From Terriglobia bacterium (GTDB lineage: Bacteria; Acidobacteriota; Terriglobia; 20CM-2-55-15): a stretch of 64,000 nucleotides of DNA. The notes under the pieces are model-generated. The model was not told the DNA's origin and did not search any database. It was given only the letters and a program-made list of their open reading frames with translations. Location: assembly GCA_963664115.2 (NCBI GenBank), contig CAXWPJ010000009.1:544001-608000 (forward strand), given 5' to 3'. Made by a program: the position numbers and the translations under genes. This document shows positions 3,448 through 25,916 of the stretch, in pieces (the stretch's first letter is position 1; every line of letters starts with the position of its first letter).

Positions 3448-3804
3448 ATGCAAACTAGACGCTAAGCAGACGACAAGAGGAGCGGAAGCCCCGGAATCGG
3501 AATCGTCGTCGACGGGAATTGAGTGAGAGCGCGTGTGGCGAGCTCACTTGGAAGTTCGAGACGTAAGATTTCGCTCGGTCGTTCAAACGGCCATCCTGGC
3601 CGAACGACCGGCGACCCTCACCATCATCCTGATGGCGAGGCCTATAGGGATCAACGGAATGTTCTTGGCCCTGGTCTTAGAATAACCCGCAGCGTTCCTC
3701 GCTGGGGGTGGACCCGGAGGCGGAGCCGGAGCGTTCCAGAAAAAGCTGCGCAGCCGAGGCGTCAGAGTAAGCAGATGATTGGATCGGCAAGACTAAACTA
3801 TCTA

Positions 3805-4955
3805 GTGGTCCCCGTTAAACAGACTGTAACTTATCAAGATTTCGCCGGCCGCGCTGGACTTTAGCAAGGATGTCGGAAGCCGTTGCAGTCCAGATGAAGG
3901 GTTTCGGGTCTTCATTGTGACGAGCGAGGTAGTCCTCCACGGCCTGGATCAACTCGGGGACCGAGCGGAAAACGCCACGCCGGAGTCGTTGCTCGGACAG
4001 ATCCCGGAAAAAGCGCTCGACCATGTTGAGCCACGACGCACTGGTTGGCGTGAAGTGCACATGAAAACGCTTGTTACGCTTGAGCCAGTTGACGACTTTC
4101 TGATGTTTGTGAGTCGCATAGTTGTCGCAAATAATGTGGATCTCCTTATCTTTCGGCATGGCGCGTTTGATCTGATTCAGAAACCGGATCCATTCCTGAT
4201 GGCGATGCTTTGGCATGCAGGTTCCGATGACCGAACCGTCCAGGATGTTGAGCGCGGCGAAAAGCGTGGTTGTCCCGTTACGTTTGTAATCGTGGGTCAT
4301 GGTGCCACACCGCCCCTTCTTCAGAGGTAACCCGGGTTGCGTGCGGTCCAGGGCCTGCATCTGGCTCTTCTCATCGCAGGACAAGACAATGGCGTTTTCC
4401 GGTGGGCTCAGATACAGACCGACCACATCCTCCAGCTTTTCGGCGAATCGTTTGTCGTTGGATAGTTTGAAGGTTCGTGACAGATGAGGCTTCAGTCCAT
4501 GGACCCGCCAGATTTTCCCGACCGTGGACTCGCTCACGCCAACGGCCTTCGCCATCGAGGCCCGACTCCAGTGCGTCGCGTTCGGGGGCTTCTCTTCCAG
4601 TGTCTTCTTGACGATCCGGGCTCGCTTCCGGCGACTGATCGTGGGAATCCGTCCGCTTCGCGGCGCATCCTTTTCGATCCCAGCCAAGCCCTGTTCCACA
4701 AAACGATTGCGCCAGCGGCCCGCTTTCTGGCGCGTGATCTCCAAGCGGGCGGCGATCTCATAATTGTTCCGACCTTCAGCGGCCAGTAATACAATTCGGG
4801 ATCGTTCCGCCAACCGGACCGATGTACTCCGGCTTCGACTCAGTCGCTCCAACTCCATCCGCTGCTTGTCATCCAATTCAATGGTCGGTGCTTTCCTCAT
4901 TCTCTATTGGACGTTGGAAAGCTATTTTAGTTACATTACTTCGAGCGGGGTACAC
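3805..4955 (-). mobile_element. IS630-family insertion sequence, copy 1 (1151 bp, TA duplication within CTAG)
   Basis: Imperfect terminal IRs GTGGTCCCCGTT..TGTAACT / GTGTACCCCGCT..TGTAACT; CTAG at both ends (3802-3805, 4955-4958); boundaries set by identity with copy 2. Confidence 0.95.
3815..4900 (-). CDS. IS630-family DDE transposase
   Basis: N-terminal HTH; CDEK, YKRNGT, CDNYATHK and SWLNMVERFF motifs. Confidence 0.97.
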   Translation of the reverse strand: MRKAPTIELDDKQRMELERLSRSRSTSVRLAERSRIVLLAAEGRNNYEIAARLEITRQKAGRWRNRFVEQGLAGIEKDAPRSGRIPTISRRKRARIVKKTLEEKPPNATHWSRASMAKAVGVSESTVGKIWRVHGLKPHLSRTFKLSNDKRFAEKLEDVVGLYLSPPENAIVLSCDEKSQMQALDRTQPGLPLKKGRCGTMTHDYKRNGTTTLFAALNILDGSVIGTCMPKHRHQEWIRFLNQIKRAMPKDKEIHIICDNYATHKHQKVVNWLKRNKRFHVHFTPTSASWLNMVERFFRDLSEQRLRRGVFRSVPELIQAVEDYLARHNEDPKPFIWTATASDILAKVQRGRRNLDKLQSV

Positions 4956-6242
4956 TAGCGCGGCCGGCAGCAGATCCCTGTAGAACGCCGAGATCCGGCT
5001 GAGCGGGGCCACTTCCAACGTCGCCATTCCCAGCGTCGTCCCATCCGGCTGTAGTATGTAAAACTCTGCGGTGGCGTCCCCTTCGGTCGGGTTCACCAAT
5101 GCCAGGGCTGTAAAGAACCCATCCCCTTCGGCCAGTTTCTGGTACACATTCAGCTGGGCGCCTTCGGTCTCTTCCACTCCCGGGACCACCCAAAACGACG
5201 GCGTGTTCGTGTACCCCTGTCCCACATAGCTGGCAATCCGACCCACCAGGGACTCCACCTCAATCCAGCCACTTTCCAGCTCTTCGGTGCCGGCCACACT
5301 GAACAACTCCGCCACCGTTCCCCGCCAGCCCCCATTGGCCGGCAAGGTCACTGTTTTCGGGTTCTCGGCAAACGCCAACACACTGCCGTCATTGCCCCGC
5401 GCGGTCAACGTTACCGTCTGTAGGGTCTCGGCTGTGTTCACCAATCCCACCACCGACACCCAGCCGCCGCCGGTCACAAACTGGTTCAACACCTGCCGCT
5501 CGGCCCCACTGGGCGCCTGTCCCAGGATCACGCCCGACTCCCGCCCCAAATCGCTGCCCGATATCTTGAAGTCGGCGACCAACTCCTGGGCCGCGACCGG
5601 CCGGTCCGCTCCCACCTGAACGTGGGACGCTCCCTCCAGCGCCGCATTCGGGAACAAGCCTTCCAGCGTCTGCCGCAATATAGCTTTCGGCTCCAAAACC
5701 ACATCGGTCACTTCCAGGCTCTCGCCTTCGAACCCGTACAACACCAAGCCCACATTAGCGGCCTCGTCTCCCACGTTCACCACTGTCACTTCCGTCTTCG
5801 TCGACCCATCCTCCGCCGCCAGCGGCAGAACGAAGCGCACGCCCGAAACCGCCGCCAGACCCCCATCCAGGTCTGTTCCTGCCCCATTCCGGTTCAGCCC
5901 GAATCCGGTCAGTCCACGCGTCGCCGATGTCACCCGTACCCAGCCGTTGAAGTCTGCGCTTCCGAACAACTCCACATAGGAAAGGGCTTCCTGGCCCCCC
6001 GCCAGTATCGTCCGCGTCGTCGGGTTCTCCACCCCAACCACCAGACTCCCGTTCGCTTCAAACGCCGCATACGTCACCGTCACCGTCACCGCACTCGGAT
6101 TCACCACCACGAGTTCGGTCGTCACCTGATCACTCGATATCACTCGGGGAAAGTTCAGGACCGATTGGGCTGTCGCTACTGCCGGCGTCAGCAGGGCTGC
6201 CAGCACAGTCAGGGCCAATAGGCGGGTCGGACGGAATCTCAT
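4956..6242 (-). pseudogene. secreted surface protein with a 4-repeat beta-domain cassette, truncated at the 3' end by IS630
   Basis: Signal peptide (ATA-Q); four ~105-aa repeats (FP..T.L.VVN ... ELF ... GW..V.S); the frame runs into the IS end within repeat 4. Confidence 0.8.
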
Positions 6243-6285
6243 ATGCGCCTTGCTTATCAAAATCGACTAAGTGCTTGGAACTGGC

Positions 6286-6314
6286 AGGTTATCGTCAGGC
6301 CTCGTTTGTGTAAA
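6286..6314 (-). promoter_or_regulatory. sigma70-type promoter TTTACA-N17-TAACCT
   Basis: Near-consensus boxes with 17-nt spacing, 44 nt upstream of ATG 6242. Confidence 0.45.
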
Positions 6315-6575
6315 GCGCATTCTTATCTTATGACGACTATCGCTTAGAGGCGATCGTAGCAGACCCGGCACGGGCAAAACTCACCCCCCGGCGCCACAAT
6401 GGGGAGGCATCCTGCCTTGTACAGGTATTCTCTACAGTGTGGCTCACGCCTCCGTGGTAAAAGAAGGAGTTGGCGCTGCGGCAAATCTGCCGGAAGGGCA
6501 GCCTTACACTCCAGGGGCGAAAGCAGTGATAAGACACAGACACGAAAAACGTTTCCTAATCGGAAAAGAGTGACT

Positions 6576-7091
6576 ATGAGACTACGTCGACTTTTAATCC
6601 TGATTTTTCTCTTCGCGTTTCCTCTGCACGCCGCGACGGTCCTACGTCTGGATTTGGATGGATTGGTATCGACCGCCCAGACCATCGTCGTCGGAAAGGT
6701 CAGGGACTCGGATACCTATTGGAGCGCCGATGGCCGTCTGATACTGACCCGGCATACGATCGAAGTAGCGGAAACCCTTAAGGGCTTTAACGATGAGACT
6801 GTTGAAATAACAACGATCGGCGGGACGATTGGCGATTTAACGCTATATGTTGCCGGAATGCCTGTCTTCGAGCCGGGCGAGGATACGGTTGTGTTCCTAG
6901 AGGCTGCGGGTCCTTACCGGACCGTCGTCGGTTTGGGCCAGGGAAAGTTCACGGTTGCCGACGACTTTGTGTCCAACAGTGTCTCGAGTCTGGAATTTGC
7001 TGACACGAGTCCCGGCCGCGTGACGCGGATGCAGTTCGCTCGATTCAAGAACGCTATCCGAGAACGGCTTGAAACAGGGAACGCGCGTTGA
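6576..7091 (+). CDS. secreted hypothetical protein coupled to the matrixin gene (possible TIMP/NTR-like fold)
   Basis: Signal peptide (LHA-A); IVVGKV, ETLKG, GGTIG, GE..VVFL and GLGQGKF motifs; stop overlaps the protease start. Confidence 0.8.
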   Translation: MRLRRLLILIFLFAFPLHAATVLRLDLDGLVSTAQTIVVGKVRDSDTYWSADGRLILTRHTIEVAETLKGFNDETVEITTIGGTIGDLTLYVAGMPVFEPGEDTVVFLEAAGPYRTVVGLGQGKFTVADDFVSNSVSSLEFADTSPGRVTRMQFARFKNAIRERLETGNAR

Positions 7092-10000
7092 GCAAACACT
7101 TCGCGTTGCTGATCCTGATGTTAATTCCCTGGCAATCTCTGTCCGGCTATATACGGATCACGACTTCCCTGGGCGCGACGCCGCGATGGGCCGAAACCGC
7201 AATTCCATACTCCGTCAGCGAGGCCGGGTCACCCCAGATACCGAATGGAAGCGAGTTTGGGGCGGTTGCCGCCGCCTTTGACGCGTGGGAAGGGGTTGCT
7301 GGCACCACGGTCGATTTCGAATTCCAGGGGACGACGCCCATACGCACCGCCGGCCGTGACGGAACGAACCTCGTCACCTTCGTGGATGACAGCGGCATGG
7401 GAGCTCTACTGGGAACGACGACGCTGGCGGCTACGTTTTCGTTCTTCAACAGGGTGGGAGGGGCACTCGTTTTCGAGGAATCCGACATCGCCTTCAATCC
7501 GTCTCACTCTCTCACAACCAGTGGCGAGCCTGACCGATTCGACATCCAGAGTGTTTTGACCCACGAAGTGGGACACCTGCTGGGACTCGATCACAGTGGT
7601 CTGATTTCCTCAGTGATGGCGCCGTTTGCCATTCAGGACCAGACCGATCAGCGGGTGTTGCTCTACGACGATATTGCCGGCGTCATCGAGATTTACCCGG
7701 ACGAGACCGCAACACCGGAGGTCGGCGTGATTCAGGGGACGGTCACCTTGAACGGGGCTGGGGTCTTCGGAGCCCACGTCGTAGCGATGGATTCCAAGGG
7801 AACGGTTATGACGTCCACGATGTCAGCGAGGGACGGCACCTACACCGTTCGATTTCTTCCCGTGGGCAATTACCGCGTGTATGCGGAGCCGCTGGATAAG
7901 CCCGTGTCGTCTCAACACCTTCCCGGTTTTTTCTCCGATCTGAATGTGGACTTTGGAACCACTTACTTTGGGGACACGCGGGTTCTCAGTGACGCCAGCA
8001 CCGTGGCGGCAACCTCCGGGGGGACGACCGGGGGCATTGATATCCATGTCCTGCCGGCGTCGATATCCGACTTCAATCTGACCCGGCCGGTATTCGCTCC
8101 ACGGATCAGTTCAGGAAGCCCGGAGACTCTTCGTGTCGGTGGTGAGAACGTCGTGGCTGGAGTTTCGTTCTCTGTGTCGACCCCTCTTATTCGTTTCGAC
8201 AGCATCAAATTCGGTGGTCGTCTCTCGACAACCGCGCCCACGAGCGCAACGCTGGAAACCGTGATCGATCCGGCCACACCCATCGGCCCCAAGAACGTGA
8301 GCGGGGCCTCGGGCTCTGACACCTCGGTGCTCAGCGGTGGGATCGTCGTTACGAATACTCCCCCTACCAACATCGAGGTGTCTCCATCCTCGGGCTTTTT
8401 TGAAGGCGGAATCCCCGTGACAATCAGAGGCCGGGACTTCCGTCCCGGAATTCGGGTGTTCTTTGCTGGGCTACCGGCAGAAAACGTCGCGTTCCTGAAT
8501 TCCGGCTTGCTCCAGGCAACAGTTCCAGCCAACTCTCCGGGACCGGCCAACCTTCAGTTGTTCAACACCGACGGTACCTCCGGCCTGCTCCTGAACGCCT
8601 TCAGCTATACGGCCCCACCTCCAACGGTTACCGATATCCAGCCCGGGAGCGGTCCTCCCGCAACATTGGTCATCATCGACGGCACTAACTTCGACACGCG
8701 CCCTCAAAACATTGTCGTGCGCTTTAACGGCTCCCGCGCACGAACGCTGAGCTCGACGCGAACCCGGATTGAGACCGTGGTGCCCTTCGGAGCGACTACT
8801 GGCCCGCTGACCGTGTCGGTGTTTGGCGTCGATACCGATGCGGGAACATTTACGGTGACCGCGCCCGAGCCGAGCGAGAATGTCGCGCCTGCCTTTGTGG
8901 AATTTTTGGATGCCTCAGTAGGGGCGGGTGGGACCGCGGCGAACTTTCCAGCTCAACCGCGGAATGGGTGCGAGAACAGTCGTGACGATGGCATCTATTT
9001 TCAGGATTTGCCTTTCAGCTTCAGCCTCTTTACTGACACGTTCATCGGCGGCACACCCGTCTCGATCGCGACCAACGGCTGGATTAGCCTGGACGGGACG
9101 TCCTTCTCCGAATTCCAGAATGCAGGCCTTCCCGCCGAGACCGTCATCCGGCCCAGCGGAGAGGATGGCGTCATTCCGCCGGCGTTGATTGCGCCCTTCT
9201 TTGACGACCTGATTCTCTGTGGAGGCGCTTCGGTCACGACCCGGATTAGGGGAAGCGCGCCGAATCGCAGTTTCGTTATTCAATGGTCGGGGCTATCGAT
9301 TCTGGACGAAGTTGGCGAGAACCTGGATGCCGATCTGACTTTCGAGTTGATCCTCTACGAGGGATCGAATGACGTCCGTTTTGTCTATGGAACTATGGCG
9401 GGCGCCCGGTCGGACGGATCCAGCGCAACCGTCGGAATGCAGAACGTTCGACGGGATCAGGCGGTTCAGGCGGGCTTCGATGAGAGCATTGTTGAATCCG
9501 GCATGGCCCTCACCTATAGGTTCGACGGGGGTGCCTATGTTGAGGAACGGACCGACGCCTCACGGCCAGGAAGACCTGTTGTTTCCGACGGCGGCGCCCG
9601 AACGGCCAGTCTTTCGGAACTTTTAGCGTCGTGGATCGCAGACCGGTTGGAGACCTCGATAGTCGAGTTCGAATACGCAATCGGTACGACGCCCGGTGGT
9701 AGCGATGTGCGTGGGTTCACGGCGGTTCAAAGCAACTCTATCGTTGTGACCGGACTATCGCTTGAAGAAGGCGCAATCTATTACTTTGCCGTGCGTGCGA
9801 AAAACGCGACAGGGCTCGCGAGTGAAGTGGGTGTGTCTGACGGAATCCTCATCGACACCTCCTTCATTCCGTCAACGTCAATTTTTCCCTCCCTACCGCA
9901 TAGCGCGACAAGTTTCGGAGGACTCGCGTTGATCGCCGAGCAGGATACCGACGTCGTACTCCGAGCGCTTGACTCGGACGGGTCCTTAGCGACGGGCTTA

Positions 10001-11044
10001 GGGATTCGGAACCCGACCCTGATCCACCTCCAGGCCGGAGAACAGTGGGTTCAGCTCATACCAGAGCTTTTCGGTCTGCTCTCCTTCACCGGATGGATCG
10101 AGTTGGAAGCGTCCCAAGCCAACCTGAAAGCTTATATGGCGACTGGCGCCAATGACTTCGATCAATTCGACGGCGTCGGGGCCGCGATTCCATCAAACGA
10201 TTTCTTCCTTCTCCACGACGGCGCCACCGGCATCCTCGTCAACCCTGGCACGGAATCGGTCACAGCCACGGTCACCGATCTCGACACAGATACGAGCCAG
10301 TTTTTGGAAATTCCGGCCCGGTCGCAAAGGACGACCCCACTGACGGGTCCGGTACGCATCACCGCGCCGGGAGCGATTGCGGCCGTTGAGCATTTTGGCT
10401 CCGAGCGGAAGTTGGCGATCGGGACAGCGGTTTCGGGCCCACAGTCGACACTGGTATTTCCATTTGCGGCGGTTGGCGGCGGTTTCCGTTCCTGGATCAC
10501 GCTCGTGAACACTTCGAGCAGTCCAGTAGGCGTATCGGTTGCGTTTAGAGGTTTGACGGAGTCCCTCCGGCTTGCCGGCCGGGCATACACACGCTTCCGA
10601 TTGTCCGAATTGTTCCCCATGTCCGCCGGGGTTCCCGAGTCTGGCGTCGTTCGCGTGACAGCTCTCTTCTCTGGGTCCCTCGTAGGAAGTATCGACATCG
10701 AAACAGATACGTCGCTGGTGACACTGGCGGCGGGCCAGGGAAGCACCCAGGTCGTGCTGCCCTATGTCGCCAACGGATATGGATTCTTCACTGGAGTCGC
10801 CGTGACAGCGGGCCGGTTGGGGGCGACAGTCACCGTTGAGGTTCTCTCAGCTTCAGGAAACGTCATTGCAACGGGCACCTTGAACGTTCCGGCGGAGGGC
10901 CACTTGGCAGATTTCCTCCCCAAGTTGATTCCCGGGTTTACAGATCAGATTGGCGGCTACATCCGCTTGCAGTCGGACCGACGGCTATGGGCATGGGAGA
11001 TCTACGGAACTGAGGTCTCCATGGGGTCGGGTCCACCGTTATAG
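7088..11044 (+). CDS. secreted M10/matrixin metalloprotease with carboxypeptidase-regulatory-like, IPT/TIG, nidogen-like and FN3-like domains and a C-terminal 4-repeat cassette
   Basis: HEVGHLLGLDH metzincin motif and Met-turn SVMAP; IPT repeats; IAPFFDDL; YYFAVRAKN. Confidence 0.9.
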   Translation: MSKHFALLILMLIPWQSLSGYIRITTSLGATPRWAETAIPYSVSEAGSPQIPNGSEFGAVAAAFDAWEGVAGTTVDFEFQGTTPIRTAGRDGTNLVTFVDDSGMGALLGTTTLAATFSFFNRVGGALVFEESDIAFNPSHSLTTSGEPDRFDIQSVLTHEVGHLLGLDHSGLISSVMAPFAIQDQTDQRVLLYDDIAGVIEIYPDETATPEVGVIQGTVTLNGAGVFGAHVVAMDSKGTVMTSTMSARDGTYTVRFLPVGNYRVYAEPLDKPVSSQHLPGFFSDLNVDFGTTYFGDTRVLSDASTVAATSGGTTGGIDIHVLPASISDFNLTRPVFAPRISSGSPETLRVGGENVVAGVSFSVSTPLIRFDSIKFGGRLSTTAPTSATLETVIDPATPIGPKNVSGASGSDTSVLSGGIVVTNTPPTNIEVSPSSGFFEGGIPVTIRGRDFRPGIRVFFAGLPAENVAFLNSGLLQATVPANSPGPANLQLFNTDGTSGLLLNAFSYTAPPPTVTDIQPGSGPPATLVIIDGTNFDTRPQNIVVRFNGSRARTLSSTRTRIETVVPFGATTGPLTVSVFGVDTDAGTFTVTAPEPSENVAPAFVEFLDASVGAGGTAANFPAQPRNGCENSRDDGIYFQDLPFSFSLFTDTFIGGTPVSIATNGWISLDGTSFSEFQNAGLPAETVIRPSGEDGVIPPALIAPFFDDLILCGGASVTTRIRGSAPNRSFVIQWSGLSILDEVGENLDADLTFELILYEGSNDVRFVYGTMAGARSDGSSATVGMQNVRRDQAVQAGFDESIVESGMALTYRFDGGAYVEERTDASRPGRPVVSDGGARTASLSELLASWIADRLETSIVEFEYAIGTTPGGSDVRGFTAVQSNSIVVTGLSLEEGAIYYFAVRAKNATGLASEVGVSDGILIDTSFIPSTSIFPSLPHSATSFGGLALIAEQDTDVVLRALDSDGSLATGLGIRNPTLIHLQAGEQWVQLIPELFGLLSFTGWIELEASQANLKAYMATGANDFDQFDGVGAAIPSNDFFLLHDGATGILVNPGTESVTATVTDLDTDTSQFLEIPARSQRTTPLTGPVRITAPGAIAAVEHFGSERKLAIGTAVSGPQSTLVFPFAAVGGGFRSWITLVNTSSSPVGVSVAFRGLTESLRLAGRAYTRFRLSELFPMSAGVPESGVVRVTALFSGSLVGSIDIETDTSLVTLAAGQGSTQVVLPYVANGYGFFTGVAVTAGRLGATVTVEVLSASGNVIATGTLNVPAEGHLADFLPKLIPGFTDQIGGYIRLQSDRRLWAWEIYGTEVSMGSGPPL

Positions 11045-11177
11045 CTGCTGACGGAATCACGTCCAGAGGATGATCGTATCGTCGTCATCAGCACAGCCCA
11101 AGGCTTTAAATTGAGGGACTTCGAAATAAAATCACACCGGACAAGGTACGGAACGTTCTCGATGGCAAGCTACCTGC

Positions 11178-11208
11178 TTGACAATCATATACAACTGGAA
11201 GCTATACT
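11178..11208 (+). promoter_or_regulatory. sigma70-type promoter TTGACA-N19-TATACT
   Basis: Near-consensus boxes, but the 19-nt spacer is long. Confidence 0.4.
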
Positions 11209-11252
11209 TTTTTCAATAAGTTAGCGTTGTTCGAAGGTGTCGTGTGGTCAAA

Positions 11253-14200
11253 ATGAACACATTGTTGCGACTTTTGTGCGCATTACTGGCGGTCACGTGT
11301 GTGGCCCTGCCGCTATCGGCCCAGTCTGTGTTCCATTTTCCCCGTGTCGCGGCCGGGGCCGGTTCGGTCACGAATTTGACCATCACGAACCTCTCACCGT
11401 CCCCAGCTGAGGTCGAGTTCGAGCTATTCGCATTGGACGGGCGCTTGGCGCCGTTGGCCATCAACCCCGTGCGCTACCGCATTGAATCAGACAGCGTTCT
11501 GTCGATGAGCACCGACACAATATTCGCGACGTCCGAGGCTGCGGGTTGGATTCGCGTCAGTAGCGAACAGTCAGGGTTAACCGCCCGGCTTCTGACAGGT
11601 GATTTGGTCTCGCGCCTGGAGGGCATTGGGGGCACTTCTCCGATAGGGGACCAACTTGTCGTTGTCCCGATAGATGATCCACTCGTAGTACGTGAGCTGC
11701 GGGTGGTCAATCCTTCGGAAGGTCTCGCTGGGGTCAACGTGACCGTTTTCGATAGCCAGGGGAACGCTATCGGGACAATCCCCGTGGCCTTGGAAGCCCA
11801 TGCCGGCGCCGACCTGAATCTTGCGCCGTTTCCAACTGGGGTGGCCGCACGGATCAGTGCAAGTCGACCCATTTTAGCGCAGGCTGTTCTTAGCGCGAAC
11901 AGTAGTCTAATGTTACTGAATGGCCAGGCCGCGTCTGAACTTGCCGCGCCGTTTCGAGTTGCGCCACACGCCGTAATCGGCAACGGTTTCGAATCAACGC
12001 TTATCTTGTCGAATCCCACCGGACAGTCTATCAACGTGTTTGCTACGTACTTCAGCGAGACAGGCTCCGGGCTTGATCCATCCCAGAGTGCGCCACCCAG
12101 GCAGCGCTTGAGTATTCCTGCAAACGGCAGCGTGTCGGTCGGCGTTGGAGAGCTCACCGGACTCGGGTTCAATCCTCCCTCAAGTGGCTGGATTGAGATC
12201 GAGTCTCCAAATGTTCCGCTGGTGGGTGCACTCGTTGTTTCCGGGGGAACAAATCGGACGGCACATCGACTACAGACTGAGCCACGAGCGGATATGTTGT
12301 ATTCAAACGCGGCTGATTTTGAAGTCGAATCTGTCGAACTGGTGCTGAGCAATTTGGAGTTTGTGGACGCGGAATTGGAGCTTTTGGCTATAGACGAGAA
12401 CGGATTCGTGATCACTACCGCGTCGGCTGTCGTCGGGGGACGTTCCAAGCAGACGTTGCGTGTTAGAGACCTGCTTCCGCGTTTTGATCTGAATCATGCC
12501 GGATTTCTTGCGGTGAAAAGTTCGGCACCGATTTTCAGCGTTGGGGTGCTCACCGGAATAAATTCTAGGGGCCTTGAGGGATTCGAGCCGGAGGTTTTGG
12601 CGGAGCCTTTCGAACCCCTTATCGCTCCGATCCGGCCCAGGATAACGTCCGTCGAGCCACAAGAGGTTCGACCTGGAGACAGCCTGCAAATTTTGACGGG
12701 ACGACTGGATTTGGGGAGTTCGTTGCTGTTTAGCGACGGTGTCATAGACTCTGATCCTTTCGTTGCTTTCGGTATTACTGTCTTCAACATTGAGGTTCCT
12801 TCCCACTCGCCGGGATTCGTCGATATCCGGATTCGTTCCTCGGATGGAACCGAATCCGCGCCCCATACGATCTTAGTGCTTCCATCCGATCAAACGCCCC
12901 TTCGCGAAGTACGCGGTCGAGCCTTTTACGAGAAAATCGACCTCGGACCAGATGGGCTCGATCTGTCGCAACCGGTCATGGTTCCGATTCGTGAAGCACG
13001 AATCGATGTGTTCGACCCATTGACCGGTGAAGTGTTTTCAGTTGGAGGTACCGATCGACATGGGAACTTCCGGGCGGTTCTCCCTTTCGGTTCAGACAGC
13101 ATTTTGCGCGCCTTGAGTCAATCGTCGGATTCTGTCCTCACGGTAGCGGACAACACGCGTGGCGGCGCGATCTACTTCGTAAGCACCGAGATCGATGCTG
13201 AAGTGTCACCCCTGTTGGTCGCGTCGGACGCGACCCGCGCTTCGGGCGCCTTCAATATCCTGGAAGTTGTCCGACAGGGAAACGATTTTCTCCTCGAGAT
13301 CGATCCGGACCTGCGCGTGCCAAACCTGAACGTCTTCTGGAGCCCAAATAATAGAGCGGTGGCGGGTAACATCGAGGCAGGTCAAATCGGTGGTACGTTC
13401 TTCAACGCAGAAACGAATACGGCCTTCATGTTGGGAGACCGCGCGACGGATTCCGATGAGTTTGACGACTCCGTCATTCTCCACGAATATGCACACCTGC
13501 TGGCAACCCAGTTCTCCAGAGACGATTCGCCCGGCGGCGCCCATTTACTGGGCGATGTACTCGATCCGAGAGTGGCCTGGTCGGAGGGATGGGCGAATTT
13601 CTTTTCTGCTTGGGTTCGAGACAATCCGATTTACAGAGATTCTCTTGGCTTTGGTGGGGAGTCGGTTCTGGAGCACAACCTTGAAGACAACGTGATTATC
13701 GGGGACCAACCCGGCTACTGGAGTGAGTTTTCCATCCATTCGATCCTATGGGATCTAGCGGACTCGAGCCCGGACACCGGAGATAATTTCCAGGTTCCAT
13801 TTGATGCTATTTGGGAAGCATTCCTCCAGTTGAGCGATGACAGTTTCGTCTACGTTCCGTCGTTCCTGGATCGTCTGACATCGTTGTTGCCAGCAGAAGC
13901 ATTCGGAATCGAGCAGCTTGCGCGCTTCGGTTCCATCGACTATGTCGCCTCGGCCGAACCTAGCGTGTCGAATCCTTTCCCGCGTTTCGTGCCAGCAACC
14001 GGAGCGGTCACCGGCGAGGTGGATTCGCTTTCAAGAAGGCGTGCCAACCTGGCGCAATCCGCACACCTCTATGTTTTCGATGTGAGTGATGGGGCTGTCT
14101 CCATACGCCTGGACATTACAGGGTTGGGCCCGGGCCAAAATCCAAACGCAAACGATCTGGATCTGTTCTTGTTAGATTCCCAGGGTCGGGTTCTGGCACG

Positions 14201-14444
14201 ATCGGACCGCGGGCTCAACGGGCAATCCGAGCTGATCTCGAGGTCCCTTCCCGCCGGCCGCTATGTTGTTGAGATCCGGAGTTTCTATACTCAGGGAGAG
14301 ACCGGAACGTTCGTCTTTAATTCCGGTTCTTACAACTTGCGGATAGCGGTTCAGTGGGTGACATTCCCAAATGAATCAGGAAGCCGTGTGGTAGGAACCC
14401 AGAGCGCCGCCGTCGATGCCGTCGAGCGCCTTCAGGGTGTCTAG
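11253..14444 (+). CDS. secreted zinc metalloprotease (gluzincin-like) with N-terminal 4-repeat cassette, IPT domain and C-terminal PPC domain
   Basis: Signal peptide (LSA-Q); HEYAH followed by SEGWANF; DLDLFL..LPAGRYVVEI PPC-like C-terminus. Confidence 0.85.
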   Translation: MNTLLRLLCALLAVTCVALPLSAQSVFHFPRVAAGAGSVTNLTITNLSPSPAEVEFELFALDGRLAPLAINPVRYRIESDSVLSMSTDTIFATSEAAGWIRVSSEQSGLTARLLTGDLVSRLEGIGGTSPIGDQLVVVPIDDPLVVRELRVVNPSEGLAGVNVTVFDSQGNAIGTIPVALEAHAGADLNLAPFPTGVAARISASRPILAQAVLSANSSLMLLNGQAASELAAPFRVAPHAVIGNGFESTLILSNPTGQSINVFATYFSETGSGLDPSQSAPPRQRLSIPANGSVSVGVGELTGLGFNPPSSGWIEIESPNVPLVGALVVSGGTNRTAHRLQTEPRADMLYSNAADFEVESVELVLSNLEFVDAELELLAIDENGFVITTASAVVGGRSKQTLRVRDLLPRFDLNHAGFLAVKSSAPIFSVGVLTGINSRGLEGFEPEVLAEPFEPLIAPIRPRITSVEPQEVRPGDSLQILTGRLDLGSSLLFSDGVIDSDPFVAFGITVFNIEVPSHSPGFVDIRIRSSDGTESAPHTILVLPSDQTPLREVRGRAFYEKIDLGPDGLDLSQPVMVPIREARIDVFDPLTGEVFSVGGTDRHGNFRAVLPFGSDSILRALSQSSDSVLTVADNTRGGAIYFVSTEIDAEVSPLLVASDATRASGAFNILEVVRQGNDFLLEIDPDLRVPNLNVFWSPNNRAVAGNIEAGQIGGTFFNAETNTAFMLGDRATDSDEFDDSVILHEYAHLLATQFSRDDSPGGAHLLGDVLDPRVAWSEGWANFFSAWVRDNPIYRDSLGFGGESVLEHNLEDNVIIGDQPGYWSEFSIHSILWDLADSSPDTGDNFQVPFDAIWEAFLQLSDDSFVYVPSFLDRLTSLLPAEAFGIEQLARFGSIDYVASAEPSVSNPFPRFVPATGAVTGEVDSLSRRRANLAQSAHLYVFDVSDGAVSIRLDITGLGPGQNPNANDLDLFLLDSQGRVLARSDRGLNGQSELISRSLPAGRYVVEIRSFYTQGETGTFVFNSGSYNLRIAVQWVTFPNESGSRVVGTQSAAVDAVERLQGV

Positions 14445-14567
14445 TCTGGGTACCAGCCACTATGAGGCGATGGTAAATGGATATACAATGATTCCGAAAG
14501 CGCTACGGCCTGAACGTTGCGGCAAAGTGGTTTCGCTGAGAATCAACTCAAATTTATGGAGTGAGCC

Positions 14568-16886
14568 GTGAACCGAAGGAGTCCCACCAAGGTCATCATC
14601 GTCTTGCTTGCTGCAATCGCGGCTTTTCTGGTTCCAGCCTTTCCGACCGCTGCTCAGGCTGTATTTGGTCTCAGCAGCAGCACAGCCACGGTCACAGAGA
14701 CGGGTCATGCGGAACTGCTGGGAACGATTAACGCAACGATCAGCTCGGGTACGTCGGCCGCGGGAACGCTGGAAGTCAGCATCGCGCCGGCCACGCTCGT
14801 CACCGACGAAACGAGCGGCGTGACGGTAACGGGAACGGGAGGACTTGCTGGAGCATCGGTTGCAAACGTGATTGAAAGCTTGGGACTTGTCGTTATCGAC
14901 ATCCCTGCCGCCGCGGGCGCCGGCTCCACTCTGACCCTGACAGGAATGCGCATCTCAATTCCCGAAACCGATGTTGAGAATTTCAACACAGTACTCTCCG
15001 TCAACAATAACTTCCTGCAGGCTGGCCAGAGCGGCATTTCGCTTATAGCAGACACTGTGGCAGGACTTGTCGTTGACGACGACGCGGATGTAATCTTCAG
15101 CATTGTGAACCGGACCATCGTCGACGACATGGAAGCCTTCAAGTTCCGTGAAGGCTGGGACGGCGCCTTTTCCGACAAGGTCGGTATACTGGGGCAAACT
15201 GCCCCCACCGAAGTCATATTCGAAATTGATGGCATCCCGGCAAACGTCACGGTCACATTTCCGGACACGATCAACAGCAAGACCACAGGAGCCACTTTGA
15301 CGACGGAGAGTGGCGATCCCGAAGAGTTCACCAGCAGCAGCGAACCCCAACGCGTTGCTTACGAATTCACGGACGATCTGCCGTCAAGCGATGAAGAGGT
15401 AGATATTTTCGAGGTGACTCCCACCTTGACGCTCGGATCTTCCGTCGAGAACGGGACCGCCTTGATCCGGGCCACGCTGGGCCCGATCGGGGCCGCAACT
15501 CCCAGCACCGAATTCCCCTTGACGGACCTTCCCCGGTTTGATGAGGAGTTGTTGCCAGCCCTTGCCCTACCCGGAAGCTCGTCCACCACCCTGCTGCACT
15601 TCCTAATTTCCAACGCGTCGTCCCAGAGCCAGCTTGCCCTCGGGAACACCGGCAGCGGGGGTGCGCAGTTGGAGATCCGGGCCCTCGGGGAGGATGGCGC
15701 CATTCTCGACGATGGAAGTGCTGTAACGTCCCAAACTCTTCAGGGACACGAAACGTTGGTGTCTTCGCTCGACGAACTTTTCGGTGATTCTCTGTCGAGC
15801 GACATCGCCTCAGTAGAGGTCGAAGTCGTCAATCCGAACGTGATTGGAACCGTGACGGGAACGGGAAGTGCGGGGCGGTTCTCAACACCTGAAATCAAAG
15901 ACCGGAAGAAATTGTACCTACCTTTCGATCGCGCCCTGGCCACGGATGACCCAACCCTGGTGATCAACAACGCGAACGAAGATCCCATCGAGGTGACTCT
16001 GAGGGTCCGCGACAGCCTGGGAACCACAATCGAGACGATCACAGAATCGATCGACGCGGCAGCCACGCTCCGCTCTCCGCTGACAACGCTCTTCGATCTG
16101 GAAGCGGGCGCCCTTCCGATGAAGGGCTATGTCAGGCTGACAGCTGCGGACAACTTTCGCGCGAGTTTGGTCGATACTCCTGATGGGTTTTCCGAAGAAG
16201 TCCCCGGTCTTGGGCCGTTCGGCCAGAGCCGACACATTTTCCCCGCTTTTCTTTTCGGCGAGGGCTGGCGGACAACCCTAACGCTTGTCAGCGCCGCAAC
16301 CTTTTCGGCAAACGTGACCGTAACGCTCCGGGACGCTACGGGTGAAGTCGTTACCGGCACCGCACCCCTCGTAATCAGCGTGGCCACCGATGAACGCGTA
16401 GACCTGGACCTGGAAGCGCTCTTCGGCACCGGAACGCTGACTCTCGGGTACATCGACATTCAATTTCAGGGCCTGCCGCTTCTGGGCAGCCCCGATTTCG
16501 CTGGCATGGTCCGAATCGGAAGGGCGAACTTTTCGGCGACGACGGCCCTTCCTACGAATCCAGACACTGAATTTTTCCTCGTGCCAACAGCTCAATCGGA
16601 ATCGGAGTTTACGGCTTTGGCCATCTTCAATTTTTCAAGTTCCGTAACGGAAGTGACGGTGGAAGTCTTCGACAGTGATGGCACAAACCTCGGCGCGAAT
16701 ACCTTCGAGCTGGACCCACGGGCAGTGGATATCCGGCTCGTTCGAGATCACGTGAATGAAATTCTGGACAGCGAAGACCGCTTGATCCGAGTGACAGCGG
16801 AAGGCGGAACAGTTGAGATGGTTGCCTATCGCGGCACGATGACCTTGGAGGAAATGTTCAACATCCCGGTTCAGGCTCCGCAATAA
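14568..16886 (+). CDS. secreted S-layer-paralogous protein with C-terminal 4-repeat cassette
   Basis: Signal peptide; TGHAELLG and DLPRF segments parallel SGHTEPVG and AIPRY in the 18169-19695 product; rich in Thr/Ser and acidic residues. Confidence 0.75.
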   Translation: MNRRSPTKVIIVLLAAIAAFLVPAFPTAAQAVFGLSSSTATVTETGHAELLGTINATISSGTSAAGTLEVSIAPATLVTDETSGVTVTGTGGLAGASVANVIESLGLVVIDIPAAAGAGSTLTLTGMRISIPETDVENFNTVLSVNNNFLQAGQSGISLIADTVAGLVVDDDADVIFSIVNRTIVDDMEAFKFREGWDGAFSDKVGILGQTAPTEVIFEIDGIPANVTVTFPDTINSKTTGATLTTESGDPEEFTSSSEPQRVAYEFTDDLPSSDEEVDIFEVTPTLTLGSSVENGTALIRATLGPIGAATPSTEFPLTDLPRFDEELLPALALPGSSSTTLLHFLISNASSQSQLALGNTGSGGAQLEIRALGEDGAILDDGSAVTSQTLQGHETLVSSLDELFGDSLSSDIASVEVEVVNPNVIGTVTGTGSAGRFSTPEIKDRKKLYLPFDRALATDDPTLVINNANEDPIEVTLRVRDSLGTTIETITESIDAAATLRSPLTTLFDLEAGALPMKGYVRLTAADNFRASLVDTPDGFSEEVPGLGPFGQSRHIFPAFLFGEGWRTTLTLVSAATFSANVTVTLRDATGEVVTGTAPLVISVATDERVDLDLEALFGTGTLTLGYIDIQFQGLPLLGSPDFAGMVRIGRANFSATTALPTNPDTEFFLVPTAQSESEFTALAIFNFSSSVTEVTVEVFDSDGTNLGANTFELDPRAVDIRLVRDHVNEILDSEDRLIRVTAEGGTVEMVAYRGTMTLEEMFNIPVQAPQ

Positions 16887-16902
16887 CCGTAACCGGAGAG
16901 TC

Positions 16903-18024
16903 TCACCGCGAAACTGGCTGACCGATATCGCGCAGAAGCCGCTCAAAATCTTCTTGTCGGAGTGAATCCGAAGGGCTCTCTCTCAGGTATTCGATCGGAA
17001 TGTTCAGGCGTTCACGGCCGAAAACCTCAGGATCAACCTCGATGTCAACAGAAGTACGTCGGCGACGGTCGTGGGCCTGGAACCGGACGATAACTTGAGC
17101 CACATCCCCCGGGGCCAAAATTTCCGGACCCTGGAACTCGACTTCGTACTCCTCGTTTCGGCCTGTGACACGCGGTATTCGGAAAGGCTCTGCGGCCAGA
17201 TTCTCTATAACGATTTCCAGTTCGCCATCCACGCCAAGATCGACGACTTCCGGAATCTGCGAAAATCGGATACGGCCGTCAACGTGACCAATAAACTCCA
17301 ATGTCGCAGCGGTTTCCAGGCCACCTCTCCTAATAGTAAACGAAATTGGCTGGCGCACGTCGGAAGATGTCAGCAAGGTGTCCCAGGAGTAGCTCATACG
17401 GCCTCTTGTCTCATCGATCCACACGGGCCGGCCAAAACGCAGACCTTTGGGCAGGCTCCGCGTGGAAGTCAACACGGTACGGATGCGGCGCGGGTCACCA
17501 CTGAACTCAACAAAGCCTTCAACAGTCTCTCCCTGAGTGATCGGGCCCACCTCCAGACTGGACGCCAGGAACTCAAACTCTAAGGACTCCTCACCCCCAC
17601 TAGACTCGGATTGCGATGCCCCGCTCGTTGCAACGCCGAAGGGACCGGCCCCAACGTCATCCATCCGATAGAACCAATCTCCTTCTGTCCAGATCCATCG
17701 GTCCGCAGACGTCACCTCAATTTCTCCCAGCCCCGGAATCTGCAGGTGTAATCGCGTAGGTACGTTGACGGCTGTGTTGTCGCCAGTGAACTCCAAACCA
17801 GTGATGTCGGCTCGTAGGATCTGATCACTCTGCCCCTGAAGGAAGCGTTCGCGGTCCGCCGGGAGGACATAGTCCAGGGCTGAAAGCTGGTTTCCAGCCA
17901 CTCTGGCGATCCAGTACTCATCGATTCGCACCCGCAGCTGGTCCAAGTCCTGAGCCAAGCCGGTCCCACAAGTAAACAGACTAAGCAGAGTGAGGCAGAG
18001 GGCCACTCGGCTCATGATGGGCAC
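16903..18024 (-). CDS. secreted hypothetical protein with Ig-like (ASH/DUF1573-like) domains
   Basis: Signal peptide (GLA-Q); GPITQGE and IENLAAEPFRI..LAPGD patterns. Confidence 0.75.
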   Translation of the reverse strand: MPIMSRVALCLTLLSLFTCGTGLAQDLDQLRVRIDEYWIARVAGNQLSALDYVLPADRERFLQGQSDQILRADITGLEFTGDNTAVNVPTRLHLQIPGLGEIEVTSADRWIWTEGDWFYRMDDVGAGPFGVATSGASQSESSGGEESLEFEFLASSLEVGPITQGETVEGFVEFSGDPRRIRTVLTSTRSLPKGLRFGRPVWIDETRGRMSYSWDTLLTSSDVRQPISFTIRRGGLETAATLEFIGHVDGRIRFSQIPEVVDLGVDGELEIVIENLAAEPFRIPRVTGRNEEYEVEFQGPEILAPGDVAQVIVRFQAHDRRRRTSVDIEVDPEVFGRERLNIPIEYLRESPSDSLRQEDFERLLRDIGQPVSR

Positions 18025-18072
18025 CTATCATCGAAACTCAACAGATCTTCGATTGTCAAGATTCCAAACCTT

Positions 18073-18103
18073 AAAAAAGGGGGAGTGAATTCACTCCCCC
18101 TTT
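18073..18103 (-). terminator. strong intrinsic terminator after the S-layer-like gene
   Basis: Perfect palindrome AAAGGGGGAGTGAATTCACTCCCCCTTT with a T6 tail on the minus strand. Confidence 0.85.
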
Positions 18104-18168
18104 ATGGACATGGTGACTATGTCAAGCCACCATATTTTTAGTTATACAGAGATTCGCCACTACCCGGG

Positions 18169-19695
18169 TCACGGCCGCTGAGTACCCGGGTTCGGGACCA
18201 CCAGAACATCGGCGGCCGCCGTAATACCAGCCAAGTTGGTGATATAACCCACACCGCGCGCATGAGTGAAGTTGGTCTCGACGAACACGTAGCCGGTGAA
18301 CGAGGCCGCATCGTCAGATTCGGCGGCGGTCAGGATGTCAGCGATCGATACCAAATAGGTATTACCCGAAACCAACACACCGTCGTCGTCCAAACCACTG
18401 CCCACGGTTGGGTCCGCATCAGTCGACCACATAACCATATCCCCACCGCTCGGGAACAGCCAGAACGTCAGCGTTCCGGCTGCCCCACCTGCGCCATCGT
18501 CACCGAAGGGGTCGGCCGTGGTGTTGGAAATGCCCATGATGCTGGCCAGGCCTTCGGTTGACACGAAGGGCATCAGCAGCGTCGTCGTCGCCGGAACGAT
18601 GTCGATGAGATCGATGGCGTCGGTAAAGGTTTCAACATAACGGGGAATGGCGCCGTCGGCTGTGTCGCTTCCGATAACGTCGTCATCCTCATCGAGTGCG
18701 TCGCCATCCGGAGAGAGCGAAACCCGCACCGAGATCGTCGCCGGAGCAAACGGGAGTTCGTCGTCATCAACTACGATCCCGTCACAGCCGACCGTTATAT
18801 CGCTTATAGCAGTCGTTGTTGCCATACCCATCAGTTCGAGAATTTCCCTATCATTATCGACATCAAACGTGACTTCGGCGACATCCGCAAAATCAGCGTC
18901 AGTCAGATTGGTGGTTGCGGTGACGGCTTACAATTAAAAGTCAGACCATCCGGAATACCGATCATCTCGACCACAACGGTAACGCCTTTATCGGTGGCAC
19001 CCGAGAACTGACTTCCATCTTTGAACAGGTCGATGAAGTTCTCGGTAATTGTGAAATCAGCCATATCATCGGCGATCGTACCGTCTGTGAAGAGCCTTGC
19101 TTCATTACCGTCCAATTCATCGAGGCCAGCAACAACGGCCGTGACGACTCGGGCAACGTTCTGGCCTGCCGTGATGAGATAACCACTTCCGGAAGTAACA
19201 GAAATATTGGCATCCAACATTGAGAACCCACTTCCGGCAACGGATACCAGGACATTCTCAAGCGTGAACGTACCCGTGTCACCGTCGACGGCGGCACCGG
19301 TTCCCCCCAACGTAATGACAACAATTCCGCTCTTGTTGTTGACTGAGGCAAAGGTGGGAACGCCCACAGCAGTCCAAAGCCTGTTCATGTCACCAGCGTC
19401 CGCGTCCACGGTAATGTCCTCATCGCCTGAACTATCACCATCGTCATTCGTGTCACCGTCGTTCGTAATGAGGACGCCGCCGAAATCGACCGTTCATCGA
19501 CCCACCTAAGGGAGTAAAGCTCGACTGCGCCTCGCAGATAAAAGTCAGGTCGCCCACCGGCTCGGTGTGCCCGGATAAAGTCGCCCGGCTGACCGGCGAG
19601 CTCGCTACCGAGCACGTGATCTGAGCGTAGGCCGCGTTGGACATCCCCATGATCAGGAACAGCGCCATCAGCGGCACGAACAGTTTGAATCTCAA
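18169..19695 (-). pseudogene. putative major S-layer protein (~508 aa), split by two compensating frameshifts (real or assembly error)
   Basis: Three ORFs join if one base is removed near 19493 and one is added near 18929. Signal peptide (AYA-Q), strong RBS AAAGGAG, near-consensus promoter and strong terminator. Confidence 0.7.
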
Positions 19696-20193: not shown

Positions 20194-21207
20194 TTAATTA
20201 GTGAGCCGGACCTCGGCAAACTCAGGGAATACGTTTCGTTCGATGCGGGCGAGGGCAGTCCTTCGTTCGAAGAAACCCGTCGCGGGGTTCAGTCGGTTCG
20301 TGGAGTGATAGACCCTCCGGAGGGAGCGGCGCGTGCCGCTGCCTTCTATTGCATGCCCAACGGCCAAAACAGCTGTCGCATCGCCACGAGCGAATTGAAG
20401 GTAATCCAGTAAGGGGGCGGTATCTGGTAAACCCACCCTCGATGCGAACTCGGCAGAACTTCCGAAAAGGATGCGGGCACGTTCCTCGATGATGCGCTCG
20501 ACCCGCGGCGGGTCCAGACCTGGAACTGCTTCCAGGACCCAGCGCGAGGCGAAGTTGGGATTCACACGGGCACCCACCGGGGAAGTGGTCAAGTATTGGT
20601 CTAAGCGTCCACGAAAAACTCGACCGTCACGGGTTTCCATAAGGCTCGGACGGAGATCCTCGAGCCGTATACCCCGGATCAAGGGAAGATCTGAGATCCC
20701 GGGCTGTCCGTTTCTCGGTGCGTAGCCCGAGCCGAGATAAGCGAGGGCCTCGGCCCCAAGCAAACGGGGCGTTTCGTCTGGATCCGTCCAATCCTGAAAT
20801 GCCTGGGTGAGCCTCTCGCCCTCCCGCGGGTCTCGGGTCCAATTGGAAAAAAAGCTCCGGAGCAAGATCTCTGGAGCCGTCAGGGGATTAATCTTTCCAT
20901 TATCGCCCTCGAAAAACAGGTCCACGGAGCCTTCAGGAAAACCGATCCTGTAGTGGAAGCCTTCATCCATGATTTCAATGGGAAGACCCGCCAGGTCTTC
21001 CTGGGCGCTACCGAGCCCACGGACTTCGAGGTAGGGCGCCATCTCCAATCCTGCCATCGCCAGCCGTTCGGCACCGAGGGCTTCCCGCTCGTTGGCGGCA
21101 ATGCGCGCCTCGACGCCTGCGGCCGCCGTCAAACTCAAAGCAATGGACGAAACGATGATGAGAACCCAAAGGACGGTCAACAGTGCAAAGCCCCGCTCGA
21201 CCCTCAT
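20194..21207 (-). CDS. gspK: type II secretion minor pseudopilin GspK
   Basis: RGFALLTVLW prepilin-like N-terminus lacking E5; GKIN, DWTDPD, VNPNFA..VL.AVPGL motifs; ATGA overlap with gspJ. Confidence 0.92.
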   Translation of the reverse strand: MRVERGFALLTVLWVLIIVSSIALSLTAAAGVEARIAANEREALGAERLAMAGLEMAPYLEVRGLGSAQEDLAGLPIEIMDEGFHYRIGFPEGSVDLFFEGDNGKINPLTAPEILLRSFFSNWTRDPREGERLTQAFQDWTDPDETPRLLGAEALAYLGSGYAPRNGQPGISDLPLIRGIRLEDLRPSLMETRDGRVFRGRLDQYLTTSPVGARVNPNFASRWVLEAVPGLDPPRVERIIEERARILFGSSAEFASRVGLPDTAPLLDYLQFARGDATAVLAVGHAIEGSGTRRSLRRVYHSTNRLNPATGFFERRTALARIERNVFPEFAEVRLTN

Positions 21208-21854: not shown

Positions 21855-22278
21855 TGAGCTGCTCCGCCAGAGGTCGAGGCTCCTCAGGAGCTGGGGCTAA
21901 GACCCGATAGCTATGGATCGTCCAGGTTCGAACACCCGAGCGGCCGTCCCACTGGAGTTCGAGCGCGATCCGAACGACGGCTAAATTACCGAACCGCGTG
22001 TCGGGAGCGATATAGGGCAGGATTTCAATGCGCCAAGCAACATCGTCATCGGACCTGCCGGATGCGGTATCGCCAATCCGCAGCGTAGGCACAAGGTCGA
22101 TTTGGGCCAGTTTCAGGCGGGCAAAATCCATGCGCCGCTGGGCCCCTTCCGTTTCCACGGTCGTCCGCAATGAAGTCGACATCCCATTCATAACGACTGA
22201 AAAAGATATGGCCAGTATAGCGACGGCAACCATCACCTCCAGAAGAGTGAATCCTCCCTGCGTACTGCCTGTTTTCAA
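21841..22278 (-). CDS. gspI: type II secretion pseudopilin GspI
   Basis: GFTLLEVMVAVAILA; position between H and J. Confidence 0.85.
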   Translation of the reverse strand: MKTGSTQGGFTLLEVMVAVAILAISFSVVMNGMSTSLRTTVETEGAQRRMDFARLKLAQIDLVPTLRIGDTASGRSDDDVAWRIEILPYIAPDTRFGNLAVVRIALELQWDGRSGVRTWTIHSYRVLAPAPEEPRPLAEQLNALG

Positions 22279-25914: not shown

Positions 25915-25916
25915 TC

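Follow-up and report, generated by a model that had tools for sequence, protein, structure and literature searches.

Tandem ASRAH-domain cassettes, a single-copy candidate S-layer subunit and an adjoining type II secretion cluster in an acidobacterial genome

The stretch of DNA analysed here (the window; 64,000 nucleotides, G000:C9:544001-608000, from a genome that is 97% complete) carries a group of genes for secreted proteins that share one domain. Four neighbouring genes each encode a cassette of four tandem ~105-residue repeats, about 426 residues in all, and a fifth, for a candidate subunit of a surface layer (S-layer), ends in a single copy and adjoins a type II secretion system (T2SS) cluster. 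All 17 domain copies, 16 repeats and one single domain, were confirmed where a preliminary description had placed them: the cassette is N-terminal in the genes at 4956-6242 and 11253-14444 and C-terminal in those at 7088-11044 and 14568-16886, and the single copy ends the product of 18169-19695. The families were assigned to the Acidobacteria through Atlas clusters and relatives of known name; one run labelled sponge metagenome contains four pieces of the locus at ≥95%.

On the forward strand, 11253-14444 encodes a secreted zincin-like protease with an HEYAH motif and a PPC domain, whose tetrad occupies 11322-12596 (residues 24-448); DUF5719 exceeded the cut-off of a Pfam scan in two window proteins, this one among them. 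The gene at 7088-11044, also forward, encodes a matrixin (M10) with TIG domains and a tetrad at 9869-11041 (residues 928-1318), and its start is overlapped by a gene for a small secreted protein (6399-7091, forward strand) with no Pfam family over the cut-off. The gene at 4959-6242 (reverse strand) does encode a signal peptide and an N-terminal cassette (residues 27-428; repeats at 5850-6164, 5511-5849, 5163-5510 and 4959-5162), as first described, but in its present form it is a cassette only: an IS630-family element (3802-4958, reverse strand, with a CTAG target duplication) cuts repeat 4, and the passenger half lies about 380 kb away at G000:C9:166844-170482, beside an inverted IS630 copy. 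Since the two halves are flanked by IS630 copies in opposite orientation, the cassette was evidently N-terminal to a propeller/TIG passenger, the order also seen in eight close relatives, and an inversion mediated by the insertion sequence is suggested to have separated them (window 3802-4958, G000:C9:165691-170482). Intact relatives of this protein measure 972-1836 residues. The IS630 element itself has 30 matches over 1100 bases in the genome, most of them 99.5-100% identical, including a second copy in the window at 59631-60787. Elsewhere in the same genome there are paralogues of the protease (65%; G000:C6:305000-308119) and of the matrixin cassette (57%; C9:306723-307820), together with dyad proteins at G000:C12:120851-122098, C10:363044-364543 and C10:361510-362499, one of the dyads standing directly upstream of a cassette-less matrixin like a split 7088-11044 gene. 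Repeat matches were found in 19 open reading frames (ORFs) of this genome, among 21,028 six-frame frames of at least 90 residues.

The candidate subunit gene (18138-19695, reverse strand) encodes a signal peptide, two immunoglobulin (Ig)-like domains, D1 and D2, and one C-terminal domain (18172-18594, reverse strand). The single C-terminal copy was correctly recognized in the preliminary description; the gene, however, has three frame breaks (near 19493, 18928 and 18180), not two, and ends at 18138. The extra bases at 18928 and 18180 are missing from the contigs of all three covering runs (two studies), and without the latter the frame closes in the family motif E-S-L-x-N/G/F. The extra base at 19493 is absent in one of three runs (X4) and present in X1 and X3. 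All 17 aligned relatives, of 510-603 residues, are intact, the C-domain being their conserved part and the rest variable, and the Ig arms are hypervariable between strains. The protein has an isoelectric point of about 4 and 0.7% lysine. Its S-layer-type traits (a signal peptide, tandem Ig-like domains, a variable part joined to a conserved anchor part, and a dedicated secretion locus) are suggestive, not diagnostic, and the protein is probably an S-layer subunit. The Slr4 profile PF19526 matched none of the 17 family members and, at E 1, none of five genomes, so that membership of the Slr4 family was rejected. Codon bias, judged against 20 ribosomal and elongation genes, put the subunit gene at the 87th percentile, on a measure that ranks GroEL only 27th and 59th and does not separate abundant genes; of the words sampled from the region of the subunit gene, 17-25% occur in four metatranscriptome runs, which is no evidence of expression, and a promoter and terminator scan gave one promoter-like site against 1.6 by chance, and no terminator. 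In runs X1 and X3 two alleles occur in the region of the first Ig domain, and in X3 and X4 the second has gained 24-30 bases in frame (window 18779-18784 and 19241-19486 for these variants). The next gene downstream of the subunit gene is a conserved partner (16903-18024, reverse strand; Atlas 0.96) with HYDIN/VesB/DUF1573-type Ig domains; genes of this type adjoin a subunit or solo-domain gene in many genomes, and the product may be a chaperone or assembly factor. Two subunit-type genes stand in tandem or close together in L046, L048, L051, L087, L095 and L147, possibly for alternative or mixed layers.

The repeats and the single C-terminal domain are both predicted to be ASRAH domains, that is, eight-stranded β-sandwiches of the ASRT/TM1070 fold. 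The model of a subunit homologue, P0019 (predicted local distance difference test score, pLDDT, 70), consists of two Ig-like domains and a C-domain, and the latter (residues 370-498) found TM1070 (1NC7) as the best of 48,161 chains (Z 12.1, root mean square deviation 2.0 Å over 102 residues), with ASRT (2II7) third (Z 9.0). Repeat 4 of P0004, the 14568-16886 protein, and the only one of its four repeats reported against 1NC7, also ranked TM1070 first (Z 10.9, 2.5 Å over 102 residues; ASRT Z 8.8), so the structural similarity of repeats and C-domain on which the preliminary description depended is borne out in the models. A profile of 49 repeats had ASRT (2II7) as its best PDB sequence match (E 3.9e-4); the subunit-family profile A1 matched none of the PDB sequences, and Foldseek with both whole models returned only multi-Ig chains at template-modelling (TM) scores ≤0.3. 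D1 and D2 of P0019 resemble Ig domains of adhesins, cohesins and pilins at Z 7-9, and no S-layer chain was among the top 50 fold matches of this homologue. The ASRAH signatures are kept, with Phe or Tyr in place of the strand-1 Trp and the Asn ending strand 2 invariant in A4 and in all four position consensuses. The domains fall outside the ASRT-like family of intracellular solo domains, PF07100: they are secreted, their PF07100 score (E 0.11) is below the cut-off, and their consensus is F-D-T-G-I-A-I-A-N against the family signature S-H-E-S-h-C-h-h-N.

Repeats and C-domains are homologous to one another by profile comparison. The repeats are about 17% identical to the C-domain and are without its long inserted loops. 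Profile-profile alignment linked the two at 79%, and a comparison of 150 outside repeats with 100 subunits raised this to 96.6% (E 5e-10), as the preliminary description had anticipated; five controls, including reversed repeats and two other β-sandwich domains, stayed at ≤0.3%. A hidden Markov model (HMM) built from window repeats alone missed the window's own C-domain, and deeper profiles were needed: with an HMM of 540 repeats, 18 of 19 C-domains of the family reached 11.6-33.5 bits (≤4.4 when reversed). The window's C-domain is a poor member by sequence even so, with 2.3 bits from the 540-repeat HMM and ≤5 bits pairwise.

Searched against 1.84 billion representatives at E 0.001, the repeat profile retrieved 29,677. 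Among the best 150 cassettes, a top-scoring set that favours many copies, 108 have four full repeats, 32 have three and a partial one, and 10 have six to twelve. In two genomes of one or two contigs, where no matched ORF exceeds four repeats, 32 ORFs were matched each: 14 with four repeats, 6 with three, 1 with two and 11 with one in G017 (150 of 169 candidates scored), and 15, 8, 4 and 5 in G056 (150 of 177). Four is the mode, in support of the preliminary description; single copies, dyads, which are common, and arrays of six to twelve also occur. The 20 low-count loci that were inspected proved to be dyads, frameshift fragments, weak tetrads or one split dyad pair. Position specificity had been noticed for repeats 1, 3 and 4; profile assignment indicates it for all four positions, with 285 of 432 repeats assigned correctly when their group was left out (chance 25%) and 15 of 16 in the window, whose relatives are in the training set. 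Of 96 subunit C-domains, 58 had their highest score at repeat position 1. Our permutation filter retained 29 of the best 150 cassettes. In 24 permuted cassettes the C-terminal half aligns with columns 13-57 of the profile (97.3%) and, more weakly, the piece at the N-terminus with columns 58-109 (34%, E 4e-4), with controls for the two halves at 2.9% and 0.4%; the half-domains abut at columns 57/58, and the linkers measure 8-9 residues. Such circular permutants imply a closed ring. The arrays of P0043, P0048, P0057 and P0083 look like tandem permuted dyads, with as many as 12 stretches; in three of these proteins the array follows a DUF7948/SBBP propeller.

The protein encoded by 14568-16886 (forward strand) connects the two architectures. 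A D1-D2 core of subunit type (about 14655-15575) is followed by four ASRAH repeats (15576-16883, residues 337-772; repeats 15576-15896, 15897-16217, 16218-16556 and 16557-16883). Alignment of the subunit family with the family of this protein (hhalign, A1 versus A2) gave 98.1% at E 7.8e-14 over 351 columns, colinear over the signal peptide and the two Ig domains and on into repeat 1, and on this sequence evidence the protein is a subunit paralogue in which four copies replace one. Its full-length relatives are conserved at 730-777 residues, and in 5 of 11 inspected genomes, as well as in G168, the subunit locus has a gene of this type next to it.

The domain is also used singly outside the subunit. 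In five inspected genomes there are secreted solo frames of 205-233 residues, consisting of a signal peptide and one ASRAH domain (L141:10548-11162, L143:9472-10089, L145:8219-8878, L144:7556-8221 and L142:10795-11493), four of which adjoin gsp genes. Near gsp, four of the solo genes are accompanied by a gene for an extracytoplasmic function (ECF) sigma factor and one for a protein of ~500-590 residues with a low-complexity linker and FG-GAP-like repeats; these ~500-590-residue genes were considered as hidden subunits and rejected, having no profile match. Long RHS-like and PKD-like proteins (L094, L100 and L149) end in one subunit-type C-domain. Two, L100:1-5586 and L094:2747-7708, are RHS/YD-repeat proteins, the former also with part of the second Ig domain; the RHS/YD proteins possibly co-assemble with the subunit, or else are a recombination product.

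Directly upstream of the subunit gene lie the T2SS genes gspH, gspI, gspJ and gspK (20194-22739, reverse strand). Further T2SS genes, gspD, a gspC-like gene, gspM, gspL, gspG, gspF and gspE, occupy 34879-44811 on the same strand (gspD to gspE from the Pfam scan), an interval that also includes, on the reverse strand, an ECF sigma/anti-sigma pair that is read from the sequence and precedes the gsp genes. Inside the cluster, at 24652-34744 (reverse strand), are glycosyltransferases, methyltransferases and a Wzm/Wzt-type ABC exporter, so named from the sequence. The subunit locus lies in or next to a gsp cluster in 8 of 11 inspected relatives, the exceptions being G006, G016 and G036 (G021 has a gene fragment only). 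In 80 mostly Bryobacterales loci, which were found with one protein as query, are biased to that order and include many short contigs, a gsp gene occurs within 8 kb in 18 and a cassette protein in none. Among 41 genomes of relatives, the subunit gene and gspK occur together in 29, are both missing in 9 and occur singly in 3.

Across a phylum sample of 151 genomes, with at most 32 candidates scored per genome in the repeat search, repeats were matched in 43, gspK in 24 and the subunit-type domain in 11. The gspK profile was built with four of these genomes included, kin genomes are not independent, G062 enters the phylum tallies only, and the weak partial gspK match of G139 was set aside from the counts. 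The 23 genomes with a full gspK, from 13 families, are exactly those with a best repeat E < 1e-14. The 12 genomes of the same class in this sample have no gspK and at most one weak repeat match. The three same-family genomes without gspK have 13-14 repeat matches, the others 37 to at least 119. Of the 23 cassette-rich T2SS genomes, 12 yielded no subunit-type gene, including all eight of family f27 and the near-complete G002 of the same genus. In G002, which has 91 repeat matches, a transposase gene (L133:15980-17407) stands just downstream of gspD, the usual subunit slot.

Many Acidobacteria encode up to about 30 likely secreted cassette proteins per genome. In the best 150, the cassette is C-terminal in 63, N-terminal in 55 and internal in 8, and 24 are cassette-only or fragments. 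Crude filters found a C-terminal membrane helix in 0 of 150 cassette proteins, a lipobox-like motif in 6 of 130 and a hydrophobic N-terminus in 106 of 130. The passengers (50 of the 150 scanned) are mutually unrelated, comprising S8, C1, C25 and M36 peptidases, propellers, LRR, RCC1 and CBM4 proteins and a deacetylase.

The reading we prefer, with about an even chance of being correct, is that the cassette is a shared anchor by which proteins exported by the T2SS, enzymes and adhesins among them, are kept on the outer-membrane surface; it would be a single-chain version of a subunit tetramer and would probably bind a surface glycan. Homology, predicted fold, architecture, copy number, synteny and co-occurrence are as observed above; the steps that we infer from them are these. 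Subunit and passengers, given their signal peptides, would pass through Sec and fold in the periplasm, where the 16903-18024 Ig protein may assist, and would be exported by the adjacent T2SS. Four subunits would meet by their C-domains at a four-fold hub, the variable Ig arms joining hubs into a lattice, and passengers would carry a ready-made single-chain hub at either end, so that one polypeptide has the avidity of a tetramer. Clefts at the ASRAH interfaces could bind polysaccharide from the glycosyltransferase and Wzm/Wzt genes at 24652-34744, the putative origin of the ligand glycan. Having one arm and a full hub, the 14568-16886 paralogue would be better suited than the other forms to enter the lattice itself. 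The TM1070-type solo tetramer has C4 symmetry, and the tetramer mimic of the preliminary description fits a fold whose solved members are homotetrameric, permutants that imply a ring and the four-for-one paralogue; what is weakened is its plugging into a lattice vertex. The second option named there, a shared T2SS anchoring or targeting module, fits best; the linkage to a T2SS is tight. A surface anchor is favoured by placement at either end, cassette-only proteins, the lack of membrane anchors in the proteins filtered, unrelated passengers and polysaccharide genes within the cluster. The cassette-only proteins and the solo domains in the subunit's gene slot suggest an independent role for the hub. 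What stays constant is the combination of ASRAH hub and T2SS; Ig arms are optional.

Several observations weigh against this anchor. The model of P0004 is weak overall (pLDDT 59, predicted TM score 0.34) and gives no ring geometry. The His and Cys of the ASRT cleft are replaced by Asp and Ala in the subunit-family consensus, so that sugar binding is argued by analogy only. The E 1e-14 threshold was set with the data already in view, and the other 20 repeat-matched phylum genomes, at E 1.3e-13 or weaker, are without this gspK. In G001 there are at least 119 repeat matches but none to gspK; G031 and G038 have a subunit gene and 0 repeat matches, and G028, G036 and G039 only 3-7. The presence of the extra base at 19493 in X1 and X3 means that the subunit gene may be truly broken in this strain. 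Surface anchoring, the glycan ligand, the lattice and localisation are all proposed from genes and predicted folds, and a secretion signal would account just as well for the co-occurrence with the T2SS.

That alternative, a folded T2SS sorting signal read by GspC/GspD, comparable to the C-terminal domain of type IX secretion system (T9SS) cargo, and dispensable once export is over, seems to us unlikely, though it is the strongest of the rivals. The coincidence of the 23 strongest-cassette genomes with the 23 that have gspK is tighter than that with the subunit gene (11 of 23), and it is joined by the low repeat counts of the three same-family genomes without gspK and by passengers unrelated to one another. 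Yet about 426 residues is large for a tag, which moreover occurs at either end, inside, or with no passenger; it also forms arrays of six to twelve (10 of 150), the single-copy subunit would need just one domain, and G001 has its many matches without gspK. Anchor and signal roles are not mutually exclusive.

Less probable still is the model of the preliminary description, in which the cassette stands in for four subunit C-domains and enters a p4 S-layer lattice as a mimic of its four-fold vertex. The one-versus-four copy number suits it, as do the paralogue with one arm and a full tetrad beside the subunit gene, the preference of C-domains for position 1, and position-specific repeats in a closed ring, which fit a hub with fixed outside contacts. 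It is undercut by the 12 of 23 cassette-rich genomes in which no subunit-type gene was found, by the five with an armless solo domain only, by a cassette with no arms for lattice bonds, and by the low identity to the hub domain, the lack of its long loops and the common dyads. A generic multivalent sugar-binding module for outside substrates or host surfaces, with an adhesin or pilin-like single-copy protein, agrees with the sugar binding predicted in De Souza 2009 and with the adhesin-, cohesin- and pilin-like D1/D2 and lack of Slr4 or S-layer matches noted above, but we think it similarly doubtful, for it leaves unexplained the link to one T2SS and to the polysaccharide genes of the cell itself, the lone gene that closes a gsp operon (as for Slr4) and the use on proteases, propellers and RHS-like proteins alike.

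Extending the anchor reading, we tentatively propose, while thinking it on balance more apt to fail than to hold in full, a T2SS-dedicated surface display in Acidobacteriota on a four-fold ASRAH hub that could be formed by four armed subunits (a p4 S-layer so far overlooked), by four solos or by a single-chain ring on up to about 30 passengers per genome. It would be a widespread Gram-negative counterpart of SLH/CWB2 and a marker of T2SS cargo legible in the sequence, with the one-armed paralogue, and perhaps passengers, at the four-fold axes of the lattice in those lineages that have an S-layer.

The ASRAH fold is itself known. In the accessible text of De Souza, Iyer and Aravind (2009, PMC2739507) it is defined with a solo tetramer that has a predicted sugar cleft at the dimer interface, and secreted forms are always dyads or tetrads mimicking the tetramer; the statement that no description of such a system existed was therefore too strong. 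The families named there are ASRT (PF07100/TM1070), amidase-fused tetrads of Chloroflexi and dyad lipoproteins of Actinobacteria, with none in Acidobacteria. The actinobacterial lipoproteins are probably DUF5719. Fold, strand-1 aromatic residue, the Asn ending strand 2 and dyads or tetrads are common to that superfamily and the present proteins; the same portions of De Souza 2009 do not describe secreted single-copy proteins with Ig arms, secreted solos, circular permutants, use at either end of many unrelated passengers, T2SS linkage or a scale such as the 29,677 representatives.

According to Bharat, von Kügelgen and Alva (2021, PMC8559796), Gram-negative bacteria have no widespread S-layer anchoring domain, and anchoring segments are the conserved part of the protein, which the conserved C-domain of the subunit fits. 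Profile scans of the window proteins, 50 passengers and subunit family members gave no SLH or CWB2 match. The proposed glycan binding would make the cassette analogous in function to these modules, which are likewise repeated, stand at either end of a protein and bind a polymer of the cell surface. SLH and CWB2 differ in being helical three-repeat units with the full set in the S-layer protein, whereas here the module is all-β, with one copy per subunit against four per passenger, in a diderm with a T2SS. In Clostridioides difficile, the cell wall proteins share their anchor module with many non-lattice surface proteins, linked to secretion and polysaccharide genes. Slr4 of Pseudoalteromonas tunicata forms a p4 S-layer exported by a T2SS (Ali 2020, PMC7821379, in the sections available). 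Slr4 and the Aeromonas A-layer resemble the subunit in length and in a gene directly downstream of a dedicated gsp cluster; unlike here, PF19526 applies, and those sections describe no passenger family for Slr4. An Atlas cluster bearing Slr4 was found at 0.90, with the family on 20% of its members, and is a lead only. The C-terminal sorting domain of the T9SS is one small, cleaved β-sandwich on dozens of secreted proteins per genome. Its passenger types overlap with those seen here, such as C25 peptidases and SBBP/DUF7948 propellers; the present cassette differs in having four domains, at either end, with a T2SS.

S-layers in Acidobacteriota are called ambiguous in a 2024 survey (Johnston 2024, 10.1101/2024.05.28.596244, in its accessible text). 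No published link of ASRAH, ASRT or DUF5719 to S-layers, T2SS or Acidobacteria was found in the literature searched, which lay outside subscription papers and the supplements of that survey. The domain, the tetrad idea and, in Gram-positive bacteria, the logic of a shared anchor are already known; a T2SS-linked, phylum-scale system with one-versus-four architecture appears undescribed, and the four-for-one paralogue, position-specific and permuted cassettes and the expansion to 29,677 representatives were not found in the papers searched. The system is a candidate both for the missing Gram-negative anchoring domain and for acidobacterial S-layers, in an abundant, poorly cultured phylum. Relatives occur in genomes of Bryobacterales, an order with cultured members. 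The cargo of a T2SS is usually difficult to recognize in sequence data; here a single profile would pick out about 20-30 candidate cargo proteins in each genome. Tens of thousands of domains that are unannotated or tagged DUF5719 would gain a context and a likely function, and in them one ring may be seen as a homo-oligomer, a single chain and a circularly permuted series.

Other genes of the window merit brief mention. At 43072-44811 the gsp cluster opens with genes for an ECF sigma factor, an anti-sigma factor and a small conserved protein, as it does in inspected relatives, and a second ECF gene often follows gspD, so dedicated envelope-stress control is possible. A GH114 glycoside hydrolase with an extra N-terminal domain (23420-24571) lies on the opposite strand inside the T2SS/polysaccharide cluster. 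At 792-2012 lies an ECF sigma factor gene, then genes for two small proteins with membrane anchors, of which the last has a weak resemblance to Metal_resist (E 0.01).

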